Positions 33,643-47,123 of a stretch of 64,000 nt of DNA are shown here, piece by piece. Both the position numbers and the translations under genes were made by a program. Below the pieces are notes generated by a model. It saw only the letters and a program-made list of their open reading frames with translations, ran no database searches and was not told the DNA's origin. The stretch comes from Actinomycetes bacterium (lineage in GTDB: Bacteria > Actinomycetota > Thermoleophilia > RBG-16-64-13), in assembly GCA_024637095.1 (NCBI GenBank), contig JAGXFV010000048.1, forward strand, positions 2,629 through 66,628. Reading direction: 5' to 3'. How positions within the stretch are numbered: position 1 is the stretch's first letter; the number at the start of each line of letters is the position of its first letter.

Positions 33643-35172
33643 TCACCAGTCGAGCAGGCGGCGGTTGCCTTCCAGACTGCGGGCCTCGGTCAGGTCCTGA
33701 ACGACCTCCAGCACTCCGCGATAGGCGCCCTCATCGTCTCGGATGGCGAAGTAGCGGATGTAGATGAACCGGCCCTCCAACTGAATCCAGAACTCGGCCA
33801 CGTTCTTGGTGCCGGCCTTGAATTCCTCGACGATCTGGCGGACAACGTGGACCGATTTGGGTGGATGGCAATTCTCCACGTTCCGGCCGATGATCGCGGG
33901 GCTGCGCGGGAAGACGCGCTCGCCCTCGGAGTAGTAGCGGACTTCGTCGTTTTCGTCCACGTAGGTGAGGTCGAAGGGCAGGTTGCGCAGCAGCAGGTCG
34001 ATGCGCTCGGCCGGGATCGCACCGGTGGTCAGAGGAAGCAGAGCGCCCTCGCCACCTTGCGCCCGTGAGGCCGGCCGCGCGGCCTCGGCCGCGGGTGCTT
34101 CTCCGCGTGGTTGGATCCAAGCGTAGCCTATGTGCTCTTCGCCGGCCCTCACCTGGGCCCACTCCTCGTCGCTGAGTTGCTCCAGGCTGACGGGGAAGAG
34201 GATCTTTTCCTCCTTGTAGGCCATGTCCTCGATCATGCTCAGGAGCTCGGGGAGCTCGGCGCGGACTCTGTCGACGTCGTCGGCGGCGAGCGCCTCCCCG
34301 GCCTGCTTCAGCCTAGTCCGGATGTCGTCGTGGATGCCCCACATGACCTGGGTCGGGCCGGAGACTCCGTGCCGCTCGAGCAGCGGGAAGAGTTGATTCT
34401 CTTTGCGAAGGTAATGTGTGTTCACCTCGCGCAGGCGCTCCAGATACTCGCTGATTTCCCGCAAGGTCTGATCGTTCGGGTCTCCGCCGGCAGCCATTCC
34501 GTCCAGACAGCAGCGCAGGGAGGAAGTGAGCTCGGCCACCACCTCGTTCTCGCGCCCGAAGGTGTCGATCGGATGTCCCGGCGGGAGTTCCTCGCCTTCA
34601 GGCAAGTTCTCCAGCGATTCCTTGAAAACGCTGACGTGGACGTCGCAAAGGCCCTGGATATCCTCGGCGGGCATGCCTTCGGCGATGAGGGCCTGCTCCA
34701 TGGCCGCGATCTCACCGGGCTCGACCTCCCGGATCAACTCGGCGAAGCGTGCCTTGAGCTGCTCTTGGTCGGCTCCCGCGTGGAGATCGCGAATGATCTC
34801 CTTGAGGACTTCCTGTCTGCGGGTGTCGCCCACGGGTTCTCCGGCTCCCGCGAATGCGGCGGCCCCGGCGGACGCTCCGCCCGCCATGTCGGCGAAGACG
34901 CCCTCGGACACCGGCGGATGGGGCGGGGCCTTCTGCTCTAACCCGCCCAGCTCGCGTCTTTCCACCTCGGCCTTGAGGTCGGAAACCAGTTTGGAGACAG
35001 GCACGTCGGCCATTTCGGCCGCGGCTTCCAGGCTGGCCACGCGGGTCAGGGTGGCGCGCAGCACGGGGTTCTTAAGCTTCTGAAACTCGGTATCGTACGC
35101 CACCAGGAAGTCGAGGAGGTAGGGATACTCCTCGAGCAGGCCGTGGATCTTCGTATCAGAAGTGATCTCCAT
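33643..35172 (-). CDS. DUF438 family protein (DUF1858-DUF438-hemerythrin-PAS_10)
   Basis: EIAAMEQALIAEG, LCDVH, PGHPIDTF.REN, HYLRKENQLFP, MWGIHD, KEEKILFP; PAS with LTYVDE.D.VRYYS and NCHPPKS. Confidence 0.88.
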   Translation of the reverse strand: MEITSDTKIHGLLEEYPYLLDFLVAYDTEFQKLKNPVLRATLTRVASLEAAAEMADVPVSKLVSDLKAEVERRELGGLEQKAPPHPPVSEGVFADMAGGASAGAAAFAGAGEPVGDTRRQEVLKEIIRDLHAGADQEQLKARFAELIREVEPGEIAAMEQALIAEGMPAEDIQGLCDVHVSVFKESLENLPEGEELPPGHPIDTFGRENEVVAELTSSLRCCLDGMAAGGDPNDQTLREISEYLERLREVNTHYLRKENQLFPLLERHGVSGPTQVMWGIHDDIRTRLKQAGEALAADDVDRVRAELPELLSMIEDMAYKEEKILFPVSLEQLSDEEWAQVRAGEEHIGYAWIQPRGEAPAAEAARPASRAQGGEGALLPLTTGAIPAERIDLLLRNLPFDLTYVDENDEVRYYSEGERVFPRSPAIIGRNVENCHPPKSVHVVRQIVEEFKAGTKNVAEFWIQLEGRFIYIRYFAIRDDEGAYRGVLEVVQDLTEARSLEGNRRLLDW

Positions 35173-35277
35173 CTGAGGGTTCCTTCCCTTCCGCTCCGGC
35201 GGGATTTCGTGGGTGCTGAATACCCGCTGGAGCGTTACCGTACTCGGCAGGCCCCCGACCGGGGCTCAGATCTAGCC

Positions 35278-37185
35278 TCATATGCAGTCGAAGGGGGTGG
35301 GCTTGGCAGAAGCTGCGGCCATGCACTCGGTACCCGCCCCTCCGAGGGGGAGAGTGACGGGAGCCGGGAGGGAGACGGGAGCCGTGGACACGGAGAAAGG
35401 CGCGCCCGGTGTCTGGCCGCGGAGGCGCTTGAAAAGCGGCTGCAGAAAGTCGCAATAGGGCGAGGGCGCACCGTAGCCGCCGGCCAGGCCGGCCGCGGTC
35501 GCCGCGTAGTGGGCCTGCACCCAACAGTCGCCCCCGCAGGAACCGGTCACCGGACAGGACGCACATGTCTCCCGGTCCGCCGCGTGGCTCTCGCGAAGAA
35601 GGCGCAGCCCGGCGGAACTCCTCCAGATCTCAGAGAGCGGCGCTTCGCGCACATCCCCCGCCGCGAACATCGGATCTCCGCAGGTTATGGGACAGGCATG
35701 CACTTGTCCGCCGGCATCGACCGCGAGCAGCGAGCATCCTGCGCCGCAAAGGTCGCGGCTTCCGTTGAGCCGGCTCTTCCAGGCGCTGAGATTGTCGATC
35801 TCGATGCCGGCGCCGGCGGCTGCCTCCATGGCGGCGTCAAGGGCGGCCAGGAGCTCGTTTGGCGCGGGTATCAGAGCGGGAGACGCGGTCAGCCTACCGC
35901 GTTCGTGCGGCAGGATCAGGTGAAGGCGCCGGATCTTCCCCCGGCCGAGGTCCCGGATCAGACGGGGCAGGCCGGAGAGGACAGGGGCGAGCATGACCGT
36001 GTTGACGCCGACCTGCATGCCGGCGGCCTGCATACGGCTCAGAGTCTCCAGACCATCACGATAAGTGCCCTCCCCGCGGATCTCGTCGTTGATCTCTTCG
36101 GGCCCGTCCAGGCTGAGCAGGCATAGCAGTTTGCCCTCGGCGGCATCGGCCAGGAGATCCACCTGTGCGGGCTCGAGATGGCGGGCGAAGAACAGCCGCA
36201 TGCGGGCCTTGGGGATCCGGGCAACCCGCCTGACGAGCGAGATGAGGTCGGTGCGGAGAAAGGGGTCTCCCCCGATGAAGCTGTAGGTGGTCGCACCCAG
36301 CTCTGCGGCCTGCTCGATGACGGACTCCCACTCGCGGGTGCCTAGCTCGGGCGCCCGCCTGCTTGCGCCAAGACGAGCATAGCAATGGGGGCAGTCCCGC
36401 GCGCAGCGGTCGGTCAGGTGCAGATAGGCCTCTTTCAAGGGGGCGCCCTCGTCGGCGCGTGGCCGTTCCAGCGAACTCCCGCCGAGGCGCTCAAAGAGCC
36501 GCAGGTCTCGTTCTTCGTCGACATCGACCCAACCGGGAAGAAGGTGAACCTCCAGCCCCGCCGCCGCCAGCCCCTCGAGCAGATGGTGACGCGCCAGCGG
36601 CCCGCCCATGGGGCTTGTTTCGAGGATTGCGCGCAACGAGGGGCCGTGGCGTCTGACGGTCTCGGCCGTCAGACCCAGCAAGTAGAAGCCGCCGTCGAAT
36701 GCGGGGCCGACGACCACCCCGGGTCTATTATGCCGAGCGGCCCGGTTGAGCTCCCTCACGGCCTCGGAGAGGAACTGTGAGGGAAGGTGGGGTGTATCGC
36801 CCGCGAGGGCGATGGCGGAGGAGTACCCGTTCTCGAGCAATCCGGTGAGCACCCCGTTCAGCCGCTGGCCCAGGTCCCGCCCCTGCTGCAGCAGGAGCTT
36901 TGTACCCTCCGGCGGCCGCCATTCCGGAGCCGGTTGCGGGAGGGCTTGGCTCAAGGCCAGGTACACGTCTTCGCCGGTGGTTCCTGCGGTCTCGAGGAGG
37001 TCATGGAGCAGAGCCTGGCTGATTTCGGCCGCCCGCCCGTCTCCCACTGAACGCGCCAGGCGCCGCTTCGAGAGTCCTGCGACCGGGGGCCGGGACATGA
37101 TGGCAATGGCACAGCCGGCTTCTGGCCGCCATTCCGGGGCCTTCGTTACGGCTTCGGCCGACGTTCGTCTCCCCTGCTGCTCCAC
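35278..37185 (-). CDS. TIGR04282/DUF2064-like transferase fused to radical SAM/SPASM domain
   Basis: N-terminal MSRPPVAGLSKRRL, QQGRDLGQRL, AGDTP, GPAFDGGFYLLG, WVDVD; CxxxCxxC (CARDCPHC), GGDP, SLDG; SPASM CGAGC..ACP..CASC..CGGDC..YC. Confidence 0.85.
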   Translation of the reverse strand: MEQQGRRTSAEAVTKAPEWRPEAGCAIAIMSRPPVAGLSKRRLARSVGDGRAAEISQALLHDLLETAGTTGEDVYLALSQALPQPAPEWRPPEGTKLLLQQGRDLGQRLNGVLTGLLENGYSSAIALAGDTPHLPSQFLSEAVRELNRAARHNRPGVVVGPAFDGGFYLLGLTAETVRRHGPSLRAILETSPMGGPLARHHLLEGLAAAGLEVHLLPGWVDVDEERDLRLFERLGGSSLERPRADEGAPLKEAYLHLTDRCARDCPHCYARLGASRRAPELGTREWESVIEQAAELGATTYSFIGGDPFLRTDLISLVRRVARIPKARMRLFFARHLEPAQVDLLADAAEGKLLCLLSLDGPEEINDEIRGEGTYRDGLETLSRMQAAGMQVGVNTVMLAPVLSGLPRLIRDLGRGKIRRLHLILPHERGRLTASPALIPAPNELLAALDAAMEAAAGAGIEIDNLSAWKSRLNGSRDLCGAGCSLLAVDAGGQVHACPITCGDPMFAAGDVREAPLSEIWRSSAGLRLLRESHAADRETCASCPVTGSCGGDCWVQAHYAATAAGLAGGYGAPSPYCDFLQPLFKRLRGQTPGAPFSVSTAPVSLPAPVTLPLGGAGTECMAAASAKPTPFDCI

Positions 37186-37281
37186 TCGCCCCTTCCCCTC
37201 ATGCGGTGCTCTTCATTAAGTTTCCCCCGTGCGATCGCCTCGTGCAGTATCGCATCGTGCGCGCGCGGGTAGAATCAATTC

Positions 37282-37308
37282 ATGTGCTGCCAACTACCCT
37301 CGGTCTAA
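37282..37308 (+). CDS. Candidate leaderless micro-ORF MCCQLPSV
   Basis: TAGAAT -10 box (37270-75), 6 nt, then ATG TGC TGC CAA CTA CCC TCG GTC TAA. Confidence 0.35.
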   Translation: MCCQLPSV

Positions 37309-37384
37309 GAACGGTTCGCCTGAGGCAGGGGCACGAGTCCGTTGACCTCGCTGCCCGGCATCCAGGAGGGCGGAAAGATCGAGG
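37298..37384 (+). ncRNA. Candidate structured leader RNA (three-helix junction) upstream of ligC
   Basis: Nested helices CCTCGGTC/GATCGAGG, AACGG/CCGTT and CTGCCC/GGGCGG; no known family recognised. Confidence 0.3.
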
Positions 37385-37421
37385 ACATGAGGGCGGCGGA
37401 GGACCGGACATAGGAGAAACC

Positions 37422-38453
37422 GTGGAGAGCTTCCCCTTCGATCCCCCCATCCTCCCCATGGAAGCGGTGGTGAAAGACGAGCTGCCCTCGCCGCCGGGCT
37501 GGGCCTACGAGCCGAAGTGGGACGGATTCAGGGTGGTGGCCTGGTCCGGGCCACCACCCCGGCTGGACAGCCGTAATGCCAAGCCCCTGCTACGGTACTT
37601 CCCCGAGATCCGGCCGTCGCTGGAGGGCCTGCCGGAGGGAACGGTCGTGGACGGGGAGGTGGTGGTCGTCCTGGAGGGCATGCAGAACTTCGACGCTCTG
37701 CAGAACCGGGTGCATCCCGCGGCCAGCCGCGTGGAGAGGCTTTCGCGGGAAACGCCGGCCCAACTCGTGGCTTTTGACCTTCTCGCCCTTCGCGGCCGGG
37801 ACCTACGTGGCTCGCCTTTCGGCGAGCGCCGAGCCGCCCTTGAAGAATTGGCGTCGGACCTGCCCGCGGGCTGGAGCCTCACACCCTCCACGCAGAATCT
37901 CGATACGGGGAAGCGCTGGTTCCATGAATTCGAATCGGCCGGATGCGACGGCATCGTCGCCAAGCGGTTGAACGGGCGCTACGTCGAGGGCAAGCGCGAC
38001 ATGGTCAAGGTGAAGCATCGGCGAAGCGTCGACGTGGTCGTGGGCGGCTACCGGCTGCACAAGCTGGGTGATCGGGTGGGCTCGCTGCTCCTCGGTCTAT
38101 ACGATTCTCGGGGGCAGCTGCACTTCATCGGCCACACTTCGGGTCTAAAGGAGGGCGAGGCGATCTCGTTGCTGTCGGAGCTCGAGGAGCTGCGGACCGA
38201 GGAGTCCTTCGGGCGCGAGGCGCGGCGGCCCGGAGGCGAGAGCCGCTGGGCTTCGGGCAAGGACCTGTCCTGGATTCCTGTGGCGCCGGAGTTGGTGGCT
38301 CAGATCAGCTACGACCAACTGACCGGCGAACGCTTCCGCCACGCCACCAGGCTGGAGCGCTGGCGACCCGACAAGGACCCCGAGGCATGCACCATGGATC
38401 AGCTGGAACGGCCCGAAGGACCTGAGTTCAGCCAGGTGGTCTTGGGCGGATAG
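37422..38453 (+). CDS. ligC: ATP-dependent DNA ligase, LigC-type (catalytic core only)
   Basis: YEPKWDGFR, DGEVV, AFDLL, DGIVAK, MVKVKH, FRH; GTG 37422 after AGGAGA. Confidence 0.85.
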   Translation: MESFPFDPPILPMEAVVKDELPSPPGWAYEPKWDGFRVVAWSGPPPRLDSRNAKPLLRYFPEIRPSLEGLPEGTVVDGEVVVVLEGMQNFDALQNRVHPAASRVERLSRETPAQLVAFDLLALRGRDLRGSPFGERRAALEELASDLPAGWSLTPSTQNLDTGKRWFHEFESAGCDGIVAKRLNGRYVEGKRDMVKVKHRRSVDVVVGGYRLHKLGDRVGSLLLGLYDSRGQLHFIGHTSGLKEGEAISLLSELEELRTEESFGREARRPGGESRWASGKDLSWIPVAPELVAQISYDQLTGERFRHATRLERWRPDKDPEACTMDQLERPEGPEFSQVVLGG

Positions 38454-38467
38454 CTGCCTCGGTAGTG

Positions 38468-39505
38468 TTACCGCCTTCGGCGTTTCGAGGGCTGCACCCG
38501 CGGAGGCTCGTCAGGTTGCTTGCGAAAGTGTGGCGGCCAGGGGGCATCCTCTTTTCCCGATTGAGCCTGCTCGTCATACAGCTCGAGGAGCCCGTCGAGC
38601 CGTCCCGACGCTTCGTCTATGCCCTCCGTCAGGTCACCCACGTCGGCGTAGCGGTCGGTGAATCCCTGCATGGGGAAGTCCTCGGGTTCCACTCCGGGCA
38701 CTTCTTCCCAGCGCAGCGGCGCGGAGACAAGGCCCGTCTGGCGGACGCTATAGGCGCTTGCCACCGTGCGGTCCCGGGCGTTCTGGTTGTAGTCGATGAA
38801 CACCCCACGGCGCTCTTCCTTCCACCAGGCGCTCGTGGCCAGATCGGGATGCCGGCGTTCGACTTCACGCGCCAGCGCCAGGGCAGCGCGGCGTACGTCA
38901 ACAAACTCCCACGCGGGTTCGATCCGCACCAGCAGGTGAATTCCTCGAGAACCAGAGGTCTTCGGCCAGGCAACCAGCCCTTTTTCGGCCAGCACTTCCC
39001 GGCAGGCGAGGGCGGCCTCCCGGACCGCCGCGAATCCCACTCCCTCCGAGGGATCCAGATCCACCCGCAATTCGTCGGGGCGATCGAGGTCTGGCACCCT
39101 CACCGGCCAAGGATTGAAGTCGATACAGTTCAACTGCACCATCCAGAGCAGGTCGGCTTCCTGACGGGGAACCAGCAGGTCGGCAGAGCGGCCCGAGGGG
39201 AACTGGATGGTGGCGAACTCGCGGGCCGGTTCCGGCGCCTGCCGACCGTCAGCGGTCTTGGCCTCGCCGCCCTGTTTGGGCGCCCGCTTCTGAAAGAACG
39301 GTTCGGCACCGGCTCCCCGCGGCCAGCGCTTGAGTACTGTGGGCCTCCCCTCTACGCCGCGCAGCGCGCCGTCGCTGCAGGCCACATAGTGGCGAGCCAA
39401 GTCGGCCTTGGTCCACCCTTGCCGGGGGAACATCAACTTGTCGGGGTGGGTTAGGCGGACGTTCCCGCCTTTGACCTCGAAGATCATCTCGTCGTTGCCT
39501 GCCAT
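38468..39505 (-). CDS. Stand-alone LigD-type primase-polymerase (Prim-PolC-like)
   Basis: LTHPDKLMFP, RWPRG, FFQK, DLDP, KTSGSRGIH, FIDYNQN, SAYSVR. Confidence 0.9.
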   Translation of the reverse strand: MAGNDEMIFEVKGGNVRLTHPDKLMFPRQGWTKADLARHYVACSDGALRGVEGRPTVLKRWPRGAGAEPFFQKRAPKQGGEAKTADGRQAPEPAREFATIQFPSGRSADLLVPRQEADLLWMVQLNCIDFNPWPVRVPDLDRPDELRVDLDPSEGVGFAAVREAALACREVLAEKGLVAWPKTSGSRGIHLLVRIEPAWEFVDVRRAALALAREVERRHPDLATSAWWKEERRGVFIDYNQNARDRTVASAYSVRQTGLVSAPLRWEEVPGVEPEDFPMQGFTDRYADVGDLTEGIDEASGRLDGLLELYDEQAQSGKEDAPWPPHFRKQPDEPPRVQPSKRRRR

Positions 39506-39656
39506 TTCGCTCCCAATCCTGGTTGGGGCTTGACCGGTGGAGAAGGTACCCTGTTGCGGGCCGGGAATACGCAGGTGAAAGGTCGCTGCGCCGTGGGTCC
39601 TGGCCGTGCAGCGGGGCGCAGTTGGTGCGAGTGGCGGCCCGCGGCCGGATGCAACC

Positions 39657-40868
39657 ATGCGGCATAAGCCGAGGAGTCAAGCCCGGGTGCATAGACTCAG
39701 TCAGATCTGGCATGTCATAGGGGAGGCGTTTTCCGATTGGCAGGAGGACGGCGCCTCCCGCCTTGCCGCCGCCCTCGCGTATTACGCCGTCTTCTCGCTG
39801 GCGCCGACCGTGATCATCGCGGTTTCCGTGGCCGGCTACATCTTGGGCCAAGGCCGGGCCGAGCAGGAAGTGCTCAGCCAGGTGGAGACCTGGCTTCAGA
39901 GCGAAGAGGCCAGCCGCCAGGTGGAGCGCATCCTGATCAACGCCAGACAGGCAGGAAGCACCGGCACGATCGTGGGAATCGGCGGGTTGGTCTTCGGCGC
40001 CACGGTCTTTTTCGCCAGCCTACAAGACGCCCTGAACATCATCTGGGAGGTCAAACCCAAGGGCCGCGGTCCTATCCTTGGCTTCCTCAAGAAACGGGCG
40101 ATCTCTTTCCTGATGATCATCGGCCTGGGCGCGCTGGTGATAGCTTCTCTGGTCTCGAGCACCGTGCTGACCGCCTTGGGCGGGTACTTCGAGGATGTCG
40201 TGCCCTTGCCCACCGGCTGGCTGCAACTGGCCAACCTGCTGGTCTCATTCGTGCTGATCACGGTGCTGTTCGGAGCGGTGTACAAGATCCTGCCCGACGC
40301 CCGTATTGCCTGGAGCGACATTTGGATCGGGGCGGGGATCACATCCTTCCTATTCGTCGTGGGCGCTTTTGGGTTGAGCGTGTACTTCGCCTTCAGCAGT
40401 GTGGGCTCGGCCTACGGGGCCGCCGGTACCCTTATCGTCATCATCGTGTGGATCTACTGGTCGTCTCAGATCATTCTGTTCGGGGCTGAAGTCACGCAGG
40501 TCTACGCCAACCGCTTTGGCCGCAGCATCGTGCCCGAGGAGGGTGCGGAGTACCGGCCTGGAGCCCACCGGTCTCGGCAGGTCAAACGCCGCCCCGAGTT
40601 GGCGGAAGGGGATACTCCCGACGAGCGGCGCGAAGCCGCGAAACGCGAGGCCCTGCATCGTGAGCATCAGAGCGGCCGCGAGCGCGAGGCCGTCCATGAG
40701 CCGGAGAACCGGCTGAAGAGTCGGCGGCAAGATCGCGTTCAGGTAGGCCGCAACAATCGTGCGGACCGATCGGCGGGGCGCCGAACCGGATCCGTTCTGT
40801 TGACCATGGCCGCAGGGGGACTGGTTGCCGAATTGGCCCGCCGCACCATCGTTCGAATGCGAAGATAG
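39657..40868 (+). CDS. YihY/virulence factor BrkB family membrane protein
   Basis: AAALAYYAVFSLAP, LNIIWEV, YKILPD, YGAAG, WIYWSSQI.LFGAE. Confidence 0.9.
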   Translation: MRHKPRSQARVHRLSQIWHVIGEAFSDWQEDGASRLAAALAYYAVFSLAPTVIIAVSVAGYILGQGRAEQEVLSQVETWLQSEEASRQVERILINARQAGSTGTIVGIGGLVFGATVFFASLQDALNIIWEVKPKGRGPILGFLKKRAISFLMIIGLGALVIASLVSSTVLTALGGYFEDVVPLPTGWLQLANLLVSFVLITVLFGAVYKILPDARIAWSDIWIGAGITSFLFVVGAFGLSVYFAFSSVGSAYGAAGTLIVIIVWIYWSSQIILFGAEVTQVYANRFGRSIVPEEGAEYRPGAHRSRQVKRRPELAEGDTPDERREAAKREALHREHQSGREREAVHEPENRLKSRRQDRVQVGRNNRADRSAGRRTGSVLLTMAAGGLVAELARRTIVRMRR

Positions 40869-43141: not shown

Positions 43142-43192
43142 GCGACTACCATTCCTGGTAGAATCCGCGCCTGTACGTTCGAGGAGGAGCAG

Positions 43193-43798
43193 ATAGATAC
43201 CCTGCGGGATTTCTTTGGGTTTCGCCTTCGTCGGGCCTTCGAGCCCCTGATCCTAGGCCTTCAGAAACTCAACATCACCCCCAATCAGATCACAGTGACA
43301 GGAGCGCTGCTCAACCTCGCGGCGGCCGCGCTGGTCGTCGGCGACCGGTTGGTGCTGGCCGGGGTGGTTTTCGTGGTGGGCAGCCTGTTGGACATGCTCG
43401 ATGGGACCTTGGCTAGGCTGGCTCAGAAGGTATCGCCCTTCGGCGCATTCCTGGACTCGACTCTGGACCGGGCTTCGGAGGGGATCGTCTTGGCGGCTAT
43501 CGCCTACCGGATGGCGGAACAGGGCCGGCCCGTGGACGCGGCTCTGGTCGTGGTCGCACTGCTAGGTTCGCTTCTGGTGAGTTACACTCGTGCACGCGCC
43601 GAGGCGCTGGGGCTCGAGTGTAAAGTAGGCTTCATGAGCCGTCCCGAGAGGGTGGTGCTTCTCTCGATCGGCTTGTTCTTCGATCTCTTGCCCTACGTGG
43701 TCTACTTGCTCGTGGTGCTCACGACGGTGACCGTGGGGCAAAGAGTGGCGCATACGTACCGGCAACTCAGACCCGCCGAAGACGCGGCGGGAGAGTAA
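43193..43798 (+). CDS. pgsA: CDP-alcohol phosphatidyltransferase (phosphatidylinositol-phosphate synthase-like); probable ATA start
   Basis: [42 protein letters not shown]; ORF extends upstream of GTG 43295 to ATA 43193 after GAGGAGG. Confidence 0.8.
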
Positions 43799-43821
43799 GA
43801 AGATTATCTCTTAGGAGGCTT

Positions 43822-45036
43822 GTGGTGAGTGGAAAGGTGAGGGTCGCGATCATTGGTGTGGGCAACTGCGCCTCTTCGTTGGTCCAAGGAGTGGAGTTCT
43901 ACAAGAACGCGGCCGATGATGAATTCGTGCCCGGACTGATGCACGTGAATCTCGGGGGCTATCACATCTCCGATATCGAGTTCTCCGCGGCCTTTGACGT
44001 GGATAGGGAAAAGGTCGGCAAGGATCTCTCCCAGGCGATATTCAGCGGCATGAACAACACGGTGAAGTTCGCGGACGTACCCGAGATGGGCATCAAGGTG
44101 CATCGGGGAATGACGCATGACGGGTTGGGCAAGTACCTTTCGGAGGTGATCACCAAGGCCCCAGGACCCACGGACGACGTGGCCGGGATTTTGCGCGACA
44201 CCAAGACCGACGTGGTGATCAACTATCTGCCCGTGGGCAGCGAGGCTGCCACCAAGTGGTACGTGGAGCAGATTCTGGACGCCGGTTGCGCCCTGGTCAA
44301 CTGCATTCCCGTGTTCATCGGGCGCGAGGAGTACTGGCAGCAGCGCTTCGAGGAAAAGGACCTCCCGCTGATCGGCGACGACATCAAGTCGCAGGTAGGT
44401 GCCACCATCGTGCACCGGGTGCTCACCCGCCTGATGCGTGAGCGCGGGGTGCGGCTCGAGCGGACCAGCCAGCTGAACGTCGGCGGTAACACCGACTTCC
44501 TCAACATGCTGGAGCGCGAGCGGCTGGAGAGCAAGAAGATCTCCAAGACCAACGCGGTCACCTCTCAACTGGACTACGACCTGGGTGCCAAGAACGTCCA
44601 CATCGGCCCGTCGGATTACGTCGAGTGGCTGGACGACCGCAAGTGGGCCTACATCCGCATGGAAGGCCGCACTTTCGGCGACGTGCCCCTCAACGTGGAA
44701 CTCAAGCTGGAAGTGGTGGACTCCCCCAACTCTGCCGGCATCGTCATCGACGCCGTTCGTTGCGCCAAGCTGGCGCTCGACCGCGGTGAGTCGGGCGTGC
44801 TCTACGGCCCCTCCGCCTACTTCAAGAAGTCGCCGCCCATTCAGGTGCACGACGACATCGCCCGAGAGATGACCGAGGCCTTCATCCGCGGCGAAGCGCT
44901 TCCGGGCTATCCTTACGTTTCCGGGAAGGGTGGGGAGTCGGCTGGTTCCGTGGCGGCGAGTGAGGCTCCGATCGCTGCCGAGGAGCAGGCCCATCCGAAC
45001 GGGACCGGAGTGGTCGCCGGCGAGAAACAGGAATAG
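43822..45036 (+). CDS. ino1: Myo-inositol-1-phosphate synthase
   Basis: [61 protein letters not shown]. Confidence 0.96.
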
Positions 45037-45083
45037 GTATTCGTGGAGCCGGAGCGGAGGGAAGTCTGCCGCTCTGGTGAGGG

Positions 45084-47123
45084 ATGAGACAAAGGCAGCA
45101 TAGAGTCGCGCTGGTGACGCCCCTGGCCTGGGATGTCCCCAGCGCGATCAACTTTCACGTGGCCGAACTGGCACGGGAGCTTCTGCGGCTGGGCCATCTT
45201 CCGACGGTCATCGTTTCCTCGGACGACCCCGACGAGTTGCGGCGAATGCGGACCCTCTGCCGGCGCCGTTGCCGGGCCGCGCTCAAGCTTCTCCCCGAGT
45301 GGACCGCTTCCGCGGGCCAAGACTCAGAGCCGGAGGGGCCGATGGTCGGGCCCAATCCGGACCCGATGCTCCTGCCCACGCCGCGAACCGGGCCCATCGA
45401 GCCCAGCGAGGGCATTCCGGTACTGCCTCTGGGGCGCAGCTTCCATCTGCGCATCAACGGCTCGGTGGCGAACGTGGGCCTACCGGTGGATCTGCGCTCC
45501 CGGCTCGAGCGCCTGCTGGTCGGCGCAGGGTTTGACGTGGTGCACGCCCACGAGCCGGTCGCCCCCTCACTCAGTTTCACCGCCGTGCGCGAGTCGCGCA
45601 GCCCGGTGATCGCGACATTTCACATGTCGCCGGTGGGCATGGCCGGGCTGGAACTCGAGCACGGGCTGCTTGAACGTTTTTACCGGCGCCTGGACGCCCG
45701 GATCGTCACCTCTGAAGCGGGAGGCCGCGCGCTGGGGGAGCGCTTTTCGGGGGGGTTCGAGGTGATCCCGCCGGGGACGCGCCTCGGGGCCAAAGAGGCG
45801 GCCGGCTCGCCCCTAGTGGAGGAGGGCACCCTGCTCTACGTCTACCGGGGCGATGATCGCCGGGGCCTCAGGGCCTTTCTTCGAGCAATTGCCGACGAAC
45901 GGCCCCCGGGCCTCAATCGGCTGGTGGTAGCGGTGCATCGCCCTTCCGCCCTGGAGTGGCCGCCGCGTTCGGCGCCCCGGGGGCTTGCAGTGCCCGTGAC
46001 CTGGCACGAGTTCGAGGACATGACTGCGCTGGAGCCTCTCTACCGACAGGCGTCGGCTGTCGTCCTGCCTTATCTCGGCGGGGAGTGGCTGCAGCAGACC
46101 GGTCTGGAGGCGATCGCCACGGGGTGCGCGGTCGCTGCCCCCGACTTCCCACTATCCGCAGACATCCTGGAAGAAGCCCATGGACGGCTCTTCAGCCCTC
46201 GCAGCGAGCGGAGTCTCGCCCGGGCGCTGGCCGCGCTGCTCCCGCCCGAGCCCGCGGAGGGCGATGCCGCCTCGGCAGGGTCGAAGCCCGGCGCTTCGCC
46301 CACTGCGCATTCGCTCGAGGCCGTCACCCACAGAATTCTGAAGCTCTACGAGAAGACGCTTGATCGGGGTAAAGAGGAGGGCGAAGGCCGCGCTTATCCC
46401 ATCAAGACGGTCAAGTTCAGCCGCGCCGGAGTGCGCGACGACGGTCTGATCTACGCCGACCTGCACATCCACACCAACCATTCCAAAGACTCCACCAGCT
46501 CGGTCGCCGAGGTGCTCGAGGCGGCTTTCGAGGTGGGTCTCGGGGCTGTGGCCATAGCCGATCACGACACCATCGCCGGAGGGCTGGAGGCACGGGAGCT
46601 GGCCGGAGAGGACCTCGACGTCATCGTCGCCTCGGAGATCAAGACGTCGGTCGGGGAGGTAATCGGACTGTTTCTCGAGGAGGAGGTGCCCGGTGGGCTT
46701 TCCTTCGAGGAGACGCTAGGCCTGATCAAGGAGCAGGGGGGCCTGGTCTACATCCCCCATCCTTTCGACGGGCTCCGTTCCACCCCGTCTTACGAATCCA
46801 TGGTCGACAACCTCTATCGGATAGACGTCGTCGAGACCTACAACGCGCGGGTGGCGCTCTCCTCGTTCAACCTGAATGCCGAACGCTTCGCCAGCAAGTA
46901 CAACCTGGTGGCCGGAGCCGGCAGCGACGCCCACGTGCTTCCCGGGATCGGTACCGCGATGCTGAGAATGAGACCGTTCAGCGGCCCCGAGGAGTTCATG
47001 ACCGCACTGCGCGAGGCCGATATCGTCACCCACCGCAAGAACCTGCTCTACCTGCAATCACTGAAGTTTTTGCAGACCACCCTGGACCACGTCCTCCCCA
47101 CCGGGGCGGACACCGGACGGTGA
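45084..47123 (+). CDS. PimA-like GT4 glycosyltransferase fused to C-terminal PHP phosphoesterase
   Basis: HEPVAPS, ATFH, GGEW...LEA; PHP motifs DLHIHT, AIADHD, IPHP, GSDAH. Confidence 0.82.
   Translation: MRQRQHRVALVTPLAWDVPSAINFHVAELARELLRLGHLPTVIVSSDDPDELRRMRTLCRRRCRAALKLLPEWTASAGQDSEPEGPMVGPNPDPMLLPTPRTGPIEPSEGIPVLPLGRSFHLRINGSVANVGLPVDLRSRLERLLVGAGFDVVHAHEPVAPSLSFTAVRESRSPVIATFHMSPVGMAGLELEHGLLERFYRRLDARIVTSEAGGRALGERFSGGFEVIPPGTRLGAKEAAGSPLVEEGTLLYVYRGDDRRGLRAFLRAIADERPPGLNRLVVAVHRPSALEWPPRSAPRGLAVPVTWHEFEDMTALEPLYRQASAVVLPYLGGEWLQQTGLEAIATGCAVAAPDFPLSADILEEAHGRLFSPRSERSLARALAALLPPEPAEGDAASAGSKPGASPTAHSLEAVTHRILKLYEKTLDRGKEEGEGRAYPIKTVKFSRAGVRDDGLIYADLHIHTNHSKDSTSSVAEVLEAAFEVGLGAVAIADHDTIAGGLEARELAGEDLDVIVASEIKTSVGEVIGLFLEEEVPGGLSFEETLGLIKEQGGLVYIPHPFDGLRSTPSYESMVDNLYRIDVVETYNARVALSSFNLNAERFASKYNLVAGAGSDAHVLPGIGTAMLRMRPFSGPEEFMTALREADIVTHRKNLLYLQSLKFLQTTLDHVLPTGADTGR

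Follow-up and report, generated by a model that had tools for sequence, protein, structure and literature searches.

Radical S-adenosylmethionine (SAM) enzymes are known to act on arsenic. ArsS (TIGR04167) adenosylates dimethylarsenite (DMAs(III)), while ArsL carries a C-terminal cysteine motif, RCCLKC, that binds As(III) (PMC13598754), and the addition of 5'-deoxyadenosyl to a thiol-compatible arsenic species is feasible, as was shown by ArsS (PMC13598754; PMC12159101). The radical SAM selenoproteins named in a 2026 review of the prokaryotic selenoproteome are limited to TIGR04167 and TrsS (PMC13188914). The gene described here lies in a 64,000-nucleotide stretch of DNA from an Actinomycetes bacterium (assembly GCA_024637095.1, contig JAGXFV010000048.1; the whole stretch is referred to below as the window), and encodes a DUF2064/TIGR04282-like domain fused to a radical SAM-SPASM enzyme. 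The fusion is genuine and conserved, but rare. The TGA at which it appears to end most likely encodes selenocysteine (Sec), judging from the conservation beyond that codon, so that gene callers would have cut off its tail, and the fusion family as a whole seems to be an unrecognised selenoprotein family.

The gene lies on the minus strand, as do all of its features given below. It consists of a single uninterrupted mechanical open reading frame (ORF; 35278..37185), as an earlier note made from the letters alone had described, with a GTG start and 635 codons, followed by TGA. If the TGA is read as Sec, the full coding sequence would cover 35272..37185, i.e. 637 codons ending in F-D-C-I-U-G, with TAG at 35274-35272. 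The same note had recognised DUF2064 motifs, a CxxxCxxC motif and a SPASM cysteine set, all of which are confirmed by Pfam and by invariance in an alignment of 29 full-length homologues. The N-terminal domain (aa 27-228; 36502..37107) is DUF2064/TIGR04282-like and has a CofC/MobA-like nucleotide-binding fold, as indicated by profile, fold and its match to structure 3cgx; it contains the motifs SKRRL, GDTP, DGGFY and WVDVD, and Pfam places DUF2064 at aa 66-174 (E 1e-20). Invariant in this domain are D130-x-P132, D164-G-G (as DGG(Y/F)Y) and D221-x-D223, and K40 and R42 are nearly so. The whole TIGR04282 model is matched (1-189 of 189, aa 27-228), but with 116.1 bits against a cut-off of 134, a value on either side of which the relatives fall (P0020 139.1, P0012 130.4, P0023 108.7).

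The radical SAM core (aa 251-470; 35776..36435) carries C261-x3-C265-x2-C268 (nt 36405-36382), with all three cysteines invariant. Its Pfam match (PF04055, aa 257-399, E 4e-15) reaches 56.9 bits, above the gathering cut-off of 29.5, which together with the CxxxCxxC motif places the protein among the radical SAM enzymes. It is followed by a SPASM domain (aa 480-590; 35416..35748), identified by Pfam (PF13186, aa 480-545, E 1e-7, 32.6 bits with a cut-off of 21.5), by the NCBIfam SPASM model TIGR04085 (45.2 bits, cut-off 27), by alignment and by fold. The profiles above cut-off, the conserved cysteine set and a fold like that of PqqE, anSME, SkfB and CteB assign it to the SPASM subgroup, and the C-terminal domain is thus SPASM and not the Cys/Sec-rich domain of the ArsS type. 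Eight cysteines of this region are invariant (C480, C484, C498, C541, C544, C550, C554 and C578), which appears enough to bind two auxiliary 4Fe-4S clusters. AlphaFold2 gives a single confident model spanning both domains (mean predicted local distance difference test score (pLDDT) 86.9, predicted template-modelling score 0.86), with residues 595-627 disordered. Foldseek matches the N-terminal domain to 3cgx (TM 0.79 relative to the target) and the C-terminal part to SkfB, CteB, SuiB, PqqE, BlsE and anSME; a sequence search of the PDB agrees, with 3cgx aligned end to end with the DUF2064 domain (E 1.4e-17). Behind the SPASM domain come an Ala/Pro/Gly-rich linker of variable length (aa 591-626; 35308..35415), predicted to be disordered (pLDDT <50) by AlphaFold2 and recognised as variable in the alignment, and the conserved C-terminal tail K-P-T-P-F-D-C-I-U-G with its Cys-x-Sec motif (35275..35307), read from the alignment and the DNA past the TGA. 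The peptide APEWRP occurs twice in the protein: one copy lies in the unconserved N-terminal leader (aa 16-21; nt ~37140-37123), the other in a loop of the DUF2064 domain that is variable (aa 86-91; nt ~36930-36913).

A search of 5.8 billion proteins found all three domains together in 31 protein clusters at 90% identity, which were matched at 40-84% identity, come from many independent contigs and, where named, are called 'DUF2064 domain-containing protein'. In a profile search of 1.84 billion representatives there were ~8 full-length clusters at 50% identity, plus fragments, and in GTDB the fusion is present in 15 species genomes, all of them Actinomycetota metagenome-assembled genomes (MAGs) labelled Thermoleophilia, 'Actinomycetes' or Coriobacteriia. 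The carriers are mostly Thermoleophilia, and the window is placed in that class by its DnaK, for which Thermoleophilia MAG proteins are the nearest matches (83-87% identity). Because the same architecture recurs in so many independent assemblies, an assembly artefact is ruled out, and the scenario that the earlier note had allowed for, in which homologues are always split, falls with it. Three syntenic relatives (the window, L001/L002 and L091/L092) make up what is called the window clade here; within it, both domains evolve under purifying selection (dN/dS 0.2-0.26), dN/dS is 0.4-0.6 for the linker (i.e. relaxed), and the tail is conserved. In several contigs of the MFD-series MAGs (GTDB loci L019, L020, L021, L023 and L024) the fusion gene looks frameshifted, possibly through sequencing or assembly error. 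That the architecture might already have been characterised was not borne out either: no NCBIfam model reached its cut-off as a specific family for the window protein, TIGR04167 (cut-off 300 bits) was not among its best 25 NCBIfam matches, and no paper was found that mentions DUF2064. The literature search likewise returned nothing on PF09837, TIGR04283, 'selenodomain' or the assembly accessions, and TIGR04282 and TIGR04167 are mentioned only in passing, by surveys or by papers on unrelated subjects; no family model or paper dedicated to the fusion or to the SPASM clade with the tail turned up in the resources searched.

The case for a Sec codon starts with the DNA around the in-frame TGA (35278..35280), which follows the rare Ile codon ATA. 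The window reads TGC ATA TGA GGC TAG, and the product would end in FDCIUG. In all 18 family loci a true stop comes one or two sense codons after TGC-AT(A/C)-TGA; ATA precedes the TGA in 17 of these, while making up 8.6% of the Ile codons of the window. The first codon after the TGA encodes Gly in 16/18 loci (GGA, GGC or GGG), and the second, which exists in the 15 loci outside the window clade, encodes Tyr or Phe in 13 of them (TAC, TAT or TTC), whereas the final stop differs between loci (TGA, TAG or TAA). As the codons vary synonymously while the amino acid stays conserved, it seems that translation runs past the TGA. Among the 39 likely genes of the window, TGA terminates 12 (31%), and the fusion gene alone is followed by a further in-frame stop at +2 or +3 codons. 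The C-terminal conservation is limited to PF(D/E)C(I/T), after the linker, and therefore the Cys-bearing tail of the earlier note (TECM...PFDCI) stands only in its second half, since the Cys of TECM is specific to the window; what it had taken for the end of the protein appears to be a Cys-x-Sec motif that gene callers cut short.

The nearest relatives without a DUF2064 domain point the same way. Two standalone SPASM enzymes end in ..ECT-U-G-Y* (P0053) and ..QCC-U-G-Y* (P0054), the latter written in different codons and in lower-GC sequence, and a methyltransferase-fused relative (P0083) reads FHCA-TGA-VLTASRSSAAK*, for which P0071, P0085, P0084, P0073 and P0081 have FHCA-C-VLT and similar, i.e. 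Cys at the position of the TGA. Such Cys-for-Sec homologues were found in this sister clade, and none was seen within the fusion family. In total, an in-frame UGA with downstream protein conservation is present in 18/18 family loci and in three sister loci (L093 8001-10118 plus downstream sequence, L089 1008-2141 and L090 248-1384). These three genes, too, end early at the TGA as annotated, each with a hairpin after it, and the database proteins of the sister clade probably lack their true C-termini.

A candidate bacterial selenocysteine insertion sequence (SECIS) hairpin, GCCCC-GGUCG-GGGGC (35251..35265), starts 15 nt after the U of the UGA in the window, and its loop contains GGUC. In all 21 loci a hairpin begins 13-16 nt past the UGA. 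Covariation was assessed on a subset of 10 sequences, as a MAFFT alignment of all 17 post-UGA regions mis-registered the hairpins. In this 10-sequence alignment 95.7% of the cells pair and 5/7 pairs are altered on both sides; none of 500 shuffles reached these values, and sliding the 3' partner by 1-3 columns reduced pairing to 19-56%. A covariance model of the main clade (R1) recovers held-out main-clade loci and, weakly, L089. Rfam gave nothing in the 33-39 kb region of the window.

Beyond the fusion family, the best profile matches are tail-bearing SPASM enzymes, which score 210-413 bits against the family profile (P0053 413, P0054 370), compared with only 79 bits for PqqE, the best solved structure. 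They include a large second group with the tail motif, many of them fused to an ArsM-like methyltransferase and some with an N-terminal PqqD/RRE domain, and it is the genes around these enzymes that connect the SPASM type to arsenosugar-type cassettes. In L094, a TIGR04283 gene (235 bits, cut-off 182) is followed by a SPASM radical SAM gene and a TIGR04282 gene (195 bits, cut-off 134), with DedA-like, flippase-like and C-GCAxxG-C-C genes upstream; in L093, a TIGR04283 gene (250 bits) is followed by a methyltransferase-rSAM-SPASM fusion; and L025 has a radical SAM-SPASM-ArsM fusion (65 bits on TIGR04167) together with an OlsE-like hydroxylase, TIGR04283 (226 bits) and TIGR04282 (197 bits). Similar arrangements occur in L030, L061 and L067. 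The earlier note had stated that TIGR04282 proteins usually accompany a non-SPASM ArsS as separate genes, which is true of many loci, where inspection of the sequence shows ArsS-like radical SAM genes, but the SPASM clade adjoins TIGR04282/TIGR04283 as well. Because those other TIGR04282 loci hold ArsS-like genes instead, the SPASM type seems to substitute for ArsS in this cassette. It is strongly supported that the window protein is a fusion of two cassette components (radical SAM and TIGR04282), and it is read as a fused cassette variant since its nearest relatives adjoin bona fide TIGR04282/TIGR04283 genes.

Several further observations concern these cassettes. The ArsS-like radical SAM gene of L043 (5784-7778) is itself fused to ArsM, parallel to the SPASM-ArsM fusions, and proteins of ~1,000 residues (N-terminal extension-rSAM-SPASM-ArsM plus a Cys-rich C-terminal domain) are encoded in L030 (7713-10814), L067 (2565-5738) and L061 (3759-6827); the fusions of all four loci adjoin DUF2064 genes that are TIGR04282-like by tblastn, their own domain calls resting on tblastn and sequence inspection. 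Upstream of the TIGR04283/rSAM genes lies a conserved trio (L094 5104-7192, L093 4668-6716) of a DedA/VTT-domain protein (weakly UptA-like), a flippase-like LPG_synthase_TM protein and a C-GCAxxG-C-C (seleno)protein, which suggests that the product of the sister-clade cassette is lipid-linked. In L089 (2-3653), the P0053 gene starts 10 nt after MtnA (417 bits, cut-off 279) and adjoins MTAP (355 bits, cut-off 306) and a phosphoribosyltransferase. MtnA and MTAP are enzymes that process 5'-substituted adenosines, and this context of methylthioadenosine/5'-deoxyadenosine salvage, at a single locus, is only suggestive.

The fusion genes themselves have a different set of neighbours. DoxX, a small divergent family 2 glycosyltransferase (GT2) and a GT87/MptA_B-like membrane protein stand directly beside the fusion in 14/15 GTDB and 6/6 metagenome loci. 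The GT2 is most like AglJ, Dol-P-hexose transferase and PpgS (polyprenyl/dolichyl-phosphate sugar synthases), always below cut-off, and reaches only 27-34 bits on TIGR04283 (cut-off 182). P0020 even is an in-frame GT87-DUF2064-rSAM-SPASM triple fusion, ending in DLTPFDCI. Isolation of the gene applies to the window clade, the DoxX/GT2/GT87-like cassette being present elsewhere. The statements of the earlier note on the neighbourhood hold: tblastn found neither arsM nor a TIGR04283-like gene in the window, where the radical SAM partner is fused and not neighbouring, and no conserved small gene that could encode a precursor peptide was found near the fusion homologues. Apart from the gene itself, tblastn of the window gave no match to GT2, GT87, DoxX, DUF4350, DUF2284, ArsM, MTAP, MtnA, MtaA or a molybdopterin enzyme.

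That the gene encodes a conserved three-part enzyme, with intact catalytic motifs in both domains and a disordered linker that ends in F-(D/E)-C-x-U-G-(Y/F), is strongly supported, as is its kinship with the SPASM/TIGR04282/TIGR04283 cassettes. The best overall explanation, a tentative one, is that this Sec-tailed radical SAM enzyme, fused to its TIGR04282 partner, would operate as follows. The Cys-Sec pair, carried on a flexible arm of ~40 residues, would reach into the radical SAM active site, where the arm could hold a soft heteroatom substrate (like the As(III)-binding C-terminal cysteines of ArsL) or, alternatively, resolve the radical by donating electrons or a hydrogen atom. The 5'-deoxyadenosyl radical would form or alter a (deoxy)pentose or an intermediate of the sugar type, much as dimethylarsenite is adenosylated by ArsS, and the DUF2064 domain would use a nucleotide to activate or transfer the radical SAM product. 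In most family members, this product would then pass to the polyprenyl-phosphate-type GT2 and on to the GT87-like GT-C enzyme, to become part of a cell-envelope glycoconjugate; in the window clade, the GT2 and GT87-like partners are not adjacent. That the radical SAM partner is naturally fused makes a strong case for both activities working on the same pathway intermediate. The two-step enzyme proposed by the earlier note is partly supported, in that the evidence is best read as an enzyme of two activities tied to the radical SAM/TIGR04282 theme. As for the arm, its swing into the radical SAM site is weakly suggested by structure prediction: without the DUF2064 domain the tail has a pLDDT of 52-57 compared with 34-37 for the linker, and in the full model it reaches ~63. 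A more specific version, in which the Cys-x-Sec arm would offer As, Se or S species to the 5'-deoxyadenosyl radical and the resulting heteroatom-bearing deoxypentose would decorate the Thermoleophilia envelope via the polyprenyl-phosphate/GT-C pathway, is rather unlikely as it stands.

A number of points weigh against this overall explanation. The window hairpin is not unusually stable (11% of the window TGA contexts fold as well), model R1 misses the hairpin of the window clade at E <= 1, and a tRNA-Sec was not found in the 64-kb window or in 26 related loci. The only indication that the tail docks is that its pLDDT (52-63) is modestly higher than that of the linker (~31-37). Two auxiliary clusters typify oxidative SPASM chemistry, and adenosyl addition does not need them. 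The window clade has no GT partners within 64 kb, and an ArsM gene adjoins no family member in the loci examined, so that arsenic may not be the substrate. Finally, biochemical data for any DUF2064 or TIGR04282 protein were not found in the literature, and the NCBI name 'arsenosugar biosynthesis glycosyltransferase' (TIGR04282) denotes a hypothetical equivalog.

An alternative is sugar-nucleotide tailoring that does not involve a metalloid, which is somewhat unlikely overall. In that case DUF2064 would make an NDP-sugar (a nucleoside diphosphate sugar) or a related compound, which the SPASM domain would oxidise, epimerise or decarboxylate in the manner of BlsE, BtrN or NeoN, with the Sec/Cys arm as hydrogen-atom donor or redox relay, after which the unusual sugar would be transferred by GT2 onto polyprenyl phosphate and by the GT87-like enzyme onto the envelope. 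The conserved Dpm/AglJ-like GT2 and GT87-like GT-C genes and the triple fusion agree with this, as do the absence of ArsM near any family member, the suitability of two auxiliary clusters for redox chemistry, and the presence of BlsE (cytosylglucuronate decarboxylase) among the closest solved structures and sequences. It is at odds with the nearest radical SAM relatives, however, which are ArsM-fused and TIGR04282/TIGR04283-associated and not known sugar-tailoring enzymes, and with the window clade, which keeps the gene without a GT neighbour; moreover, we know of no sugar-modifying radical SAM enzyme with a Sec tail.

It is improbable that the enzyme matures itself, i.e. that the radical SAM-SPASM part cross-links or heterocyclises its own Cys-Ile-Sec tail into a built-in or released seleno-cofactor, in the way of peptides that are ribosomally synthesised and modified after translation (RiPPs), of which MftC acting on MftA and SbtM acting on a Sec-containing peptide are analogues. 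It is indeed to peptide maturases that the radical SAM part has its best NCBIfam matches (MftC, GDL-trio, StsB and PqqE, with SbtM as a weak match at 45.6 bits), several sister-clade proteins have an N-terminal PqqD/RRE peptide-binding domain, and a short, invariant motif closing a disordered linker resembles a tethered core peptide. All of these models remain far under their cut-offs, however (MftC 98 bits against 265, PqqE 86.6 against 381), by which the protein falls outside the RiPP maturases, and Pfam found no PqqD/RRE domain in the fusion family. The motif is internal in sister proteins, where more sequence or a methyltransferase follows, and therefore a free C-terminus is not required; one 637-residue selenoprotein would be consumed per product molecule, which is costly, and the link to DUF2064 and the GT genes would be left unexplained. 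More improbable still is an ordinary stop, with a protein ending in ..FDCI, a downstream hairpin that serves as terminator or regulatory element, and a tail Cys that is a cluster ligand or catalytic thiol: all gene callers do end the protein at the TGA, and the window hairpin is GC-rich and, lying in the 3' region, of ordinary stability, but Gly and then Tyr/Phe are kept with synonymous codons and a variable second stop in different phyla and at different GC contents, homologues with Cys at the position of the TGA read on in frame into the same VLT, the codon is TGA in 18/18 loci against 31% of the stops in the window, and the hairpin lacks a T-run, with no terminator-like site found on that strand.

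Around the fusion gene in the window, a gene (33643..35172, minus strand, 105 nt downstream) encodes a DUF1858-DUF438-hemerythrin-PAS_10 protein of 509 aa, which has no NCBIfam match and may be an O2/NO sensor or an Fe-S repair protein. It is syntenic in all three window-clade genomes and only there, which leaves its functional link to the fusion uncertain. Between 33.4 and 37.5 kb no promoter-like site was found, nor a terminator-like site on the strand of the fusion gene. The upstream neighbours in the window clade are LigD genes, with the LigD functions split in the window (37206-39658) into an ATP-dependent ligase (plus strand) and a primase-polymerase (PrimPol; minus strand), the latter further divided into two ORFs in L091; the 415-aa ligase ORF of the window is probably over-extended at its 5' end, as its relatives have 346 aa. 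At 43142-47123 (plus strand), a CDP-alcohol phosphatidyltransferase, an inositol-1-phosphate synthase and a GT4-PHP fusion, by domain calls carried over from the syntenic loci L001 and L091, form what looks like a phosphatidylinositol/mannoside-type lipid pathway.

DUF2284 genes lie near the fusion in several relatives (L003 9980-10489, and at the locus ends of L005 and L009), and a double selenoprotein model exists in which DUF2284 is joined to ArsM. Also close by in L005 and L009 are a MarR gene, an MtaA/CmuA-family methyltransferase and a molybdopterin oxidoreductase; a link to arsenic respiration was considered and dropped, since the oxidoreductase near these two relatives is Fdh/Phs-like and not ArrA.

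DUF2064/TIGR04282 proteins are widespread, and the fusion offers a single polypeptide to reconstitute and a tractable way to approach what DUF2064 does. If the Sec tail proves genuine, the database entries of the family and of the sister clade miss their last one or two residues (more in P0083), among them a selenocysteine that is likely catalytic, and recombinant work on the annotated ORF would therefore give a crippled enzyme. The clusters of SPASM, ArsM, TIGR04282 and TIGR04283 genes suggest a second enzyme type for arsenosugar-like chemistry, while the GT2/GT87 cassette suggests an undescribed glycoconjugate in the envelope of Thermoleophilia, a poorly studied but abundant soil class. Should the heteroatom-bearing deoxypentose be real, envelope glycoconjugates would gain a new class, and carbon-metalloid bonds a second route besides that of ArsS.

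Among known systems, the family shares its theme with the ArsS cassette (TIGR04167, TIGR04282, TIGR04283 and ArsM), in which a radical SAM enzyme, itself a (seleno)protein with Sec/Cys near its C-terminus, is likewise paired with a DUF2064/TIGR04282 protein and a GT2; the DUF2064 domain of the window covers the entire TIGR04282 model, and the ArsS-ArsM fusion of L043 has its parallel in the SPASM-ArsM fusions. Unlike ArsS, the radical SAM part of the window protein is of the SPASM type with two auxiliary-cluster sites and does not have the ArsS fold, its DUF2064 domain is fused and scores below the TIGR04282 cut-off (116 against 134 bits), no ArsM or TIGR04283 gene is adjacent, and the GT2 of its relatives is Dpm/AglJ-like and accompanied by a GT87-like GT-C gene. 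The sister clade (P0071, P0083 and the L025 ORF) provides the closest SPASM sequences, with the same tail motif and the same Sec/Cys position, but its DUF2064 protein is encoded separately (in L094 by a gene downstream of the radical SAM one), many members carry an ArsM-like methyltransferase or an RRE domain, and the membrane partners are DedA-like and flippase-like instead of GT87 and DoxX. ArsL, from the arsinothricin pathway, resembles the window protein in its As(III)-binding C-terminal Cys motif, RCCLKC, and in forming a C-As bond by radical SAM chemistry (PMC13598754). ArsL, however, uses a non-canonical SAM cleavage to an ACP (3-amino-3-carboxypropyl) radical, has three Cys and no Sec, and is described with neither a SPASM nor a DUF2064 link (PMC13598754).

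With the SPASM maturases and anSME (MftC, PqqE, SkfB, CteB, SuiB and anSMEcpe), the window protein shares the fold and the pattern of cluster cysteines, and they are its top Foldseek and PDB matches; it differs from them in staying far under their family models and in having no precursor peptide gene or RRE domain, while none of them has a DUF2064 domain or a Sec tail. CofC/FbiD, the 2-phospho-L-lactate/PEP (phosphoenolpyruvate) guanylyltransferase, is approached from the other end of the protein: TIGR04282 proteins also match the CofC model, 3cgx aligns end to end and the acidic D-x-D near the end of the domain is invariant, but the window protein does not reach the CofC cut-off and no F420 genes are nearby. 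Large thioredoxin reductase, finally, has a flexible C-terminal arm, -Gly-Cys-Sec-Gly, with a Cys/Sec redox pair near the C-terminus. The -Cys-Ile-Sec-Gly of the window tail would resemble it in function only, since the reductase belongs to an unrelated class, the flavoproteins, and its pair is adjacent (CU), compared with the spaced CxU of the window protein.

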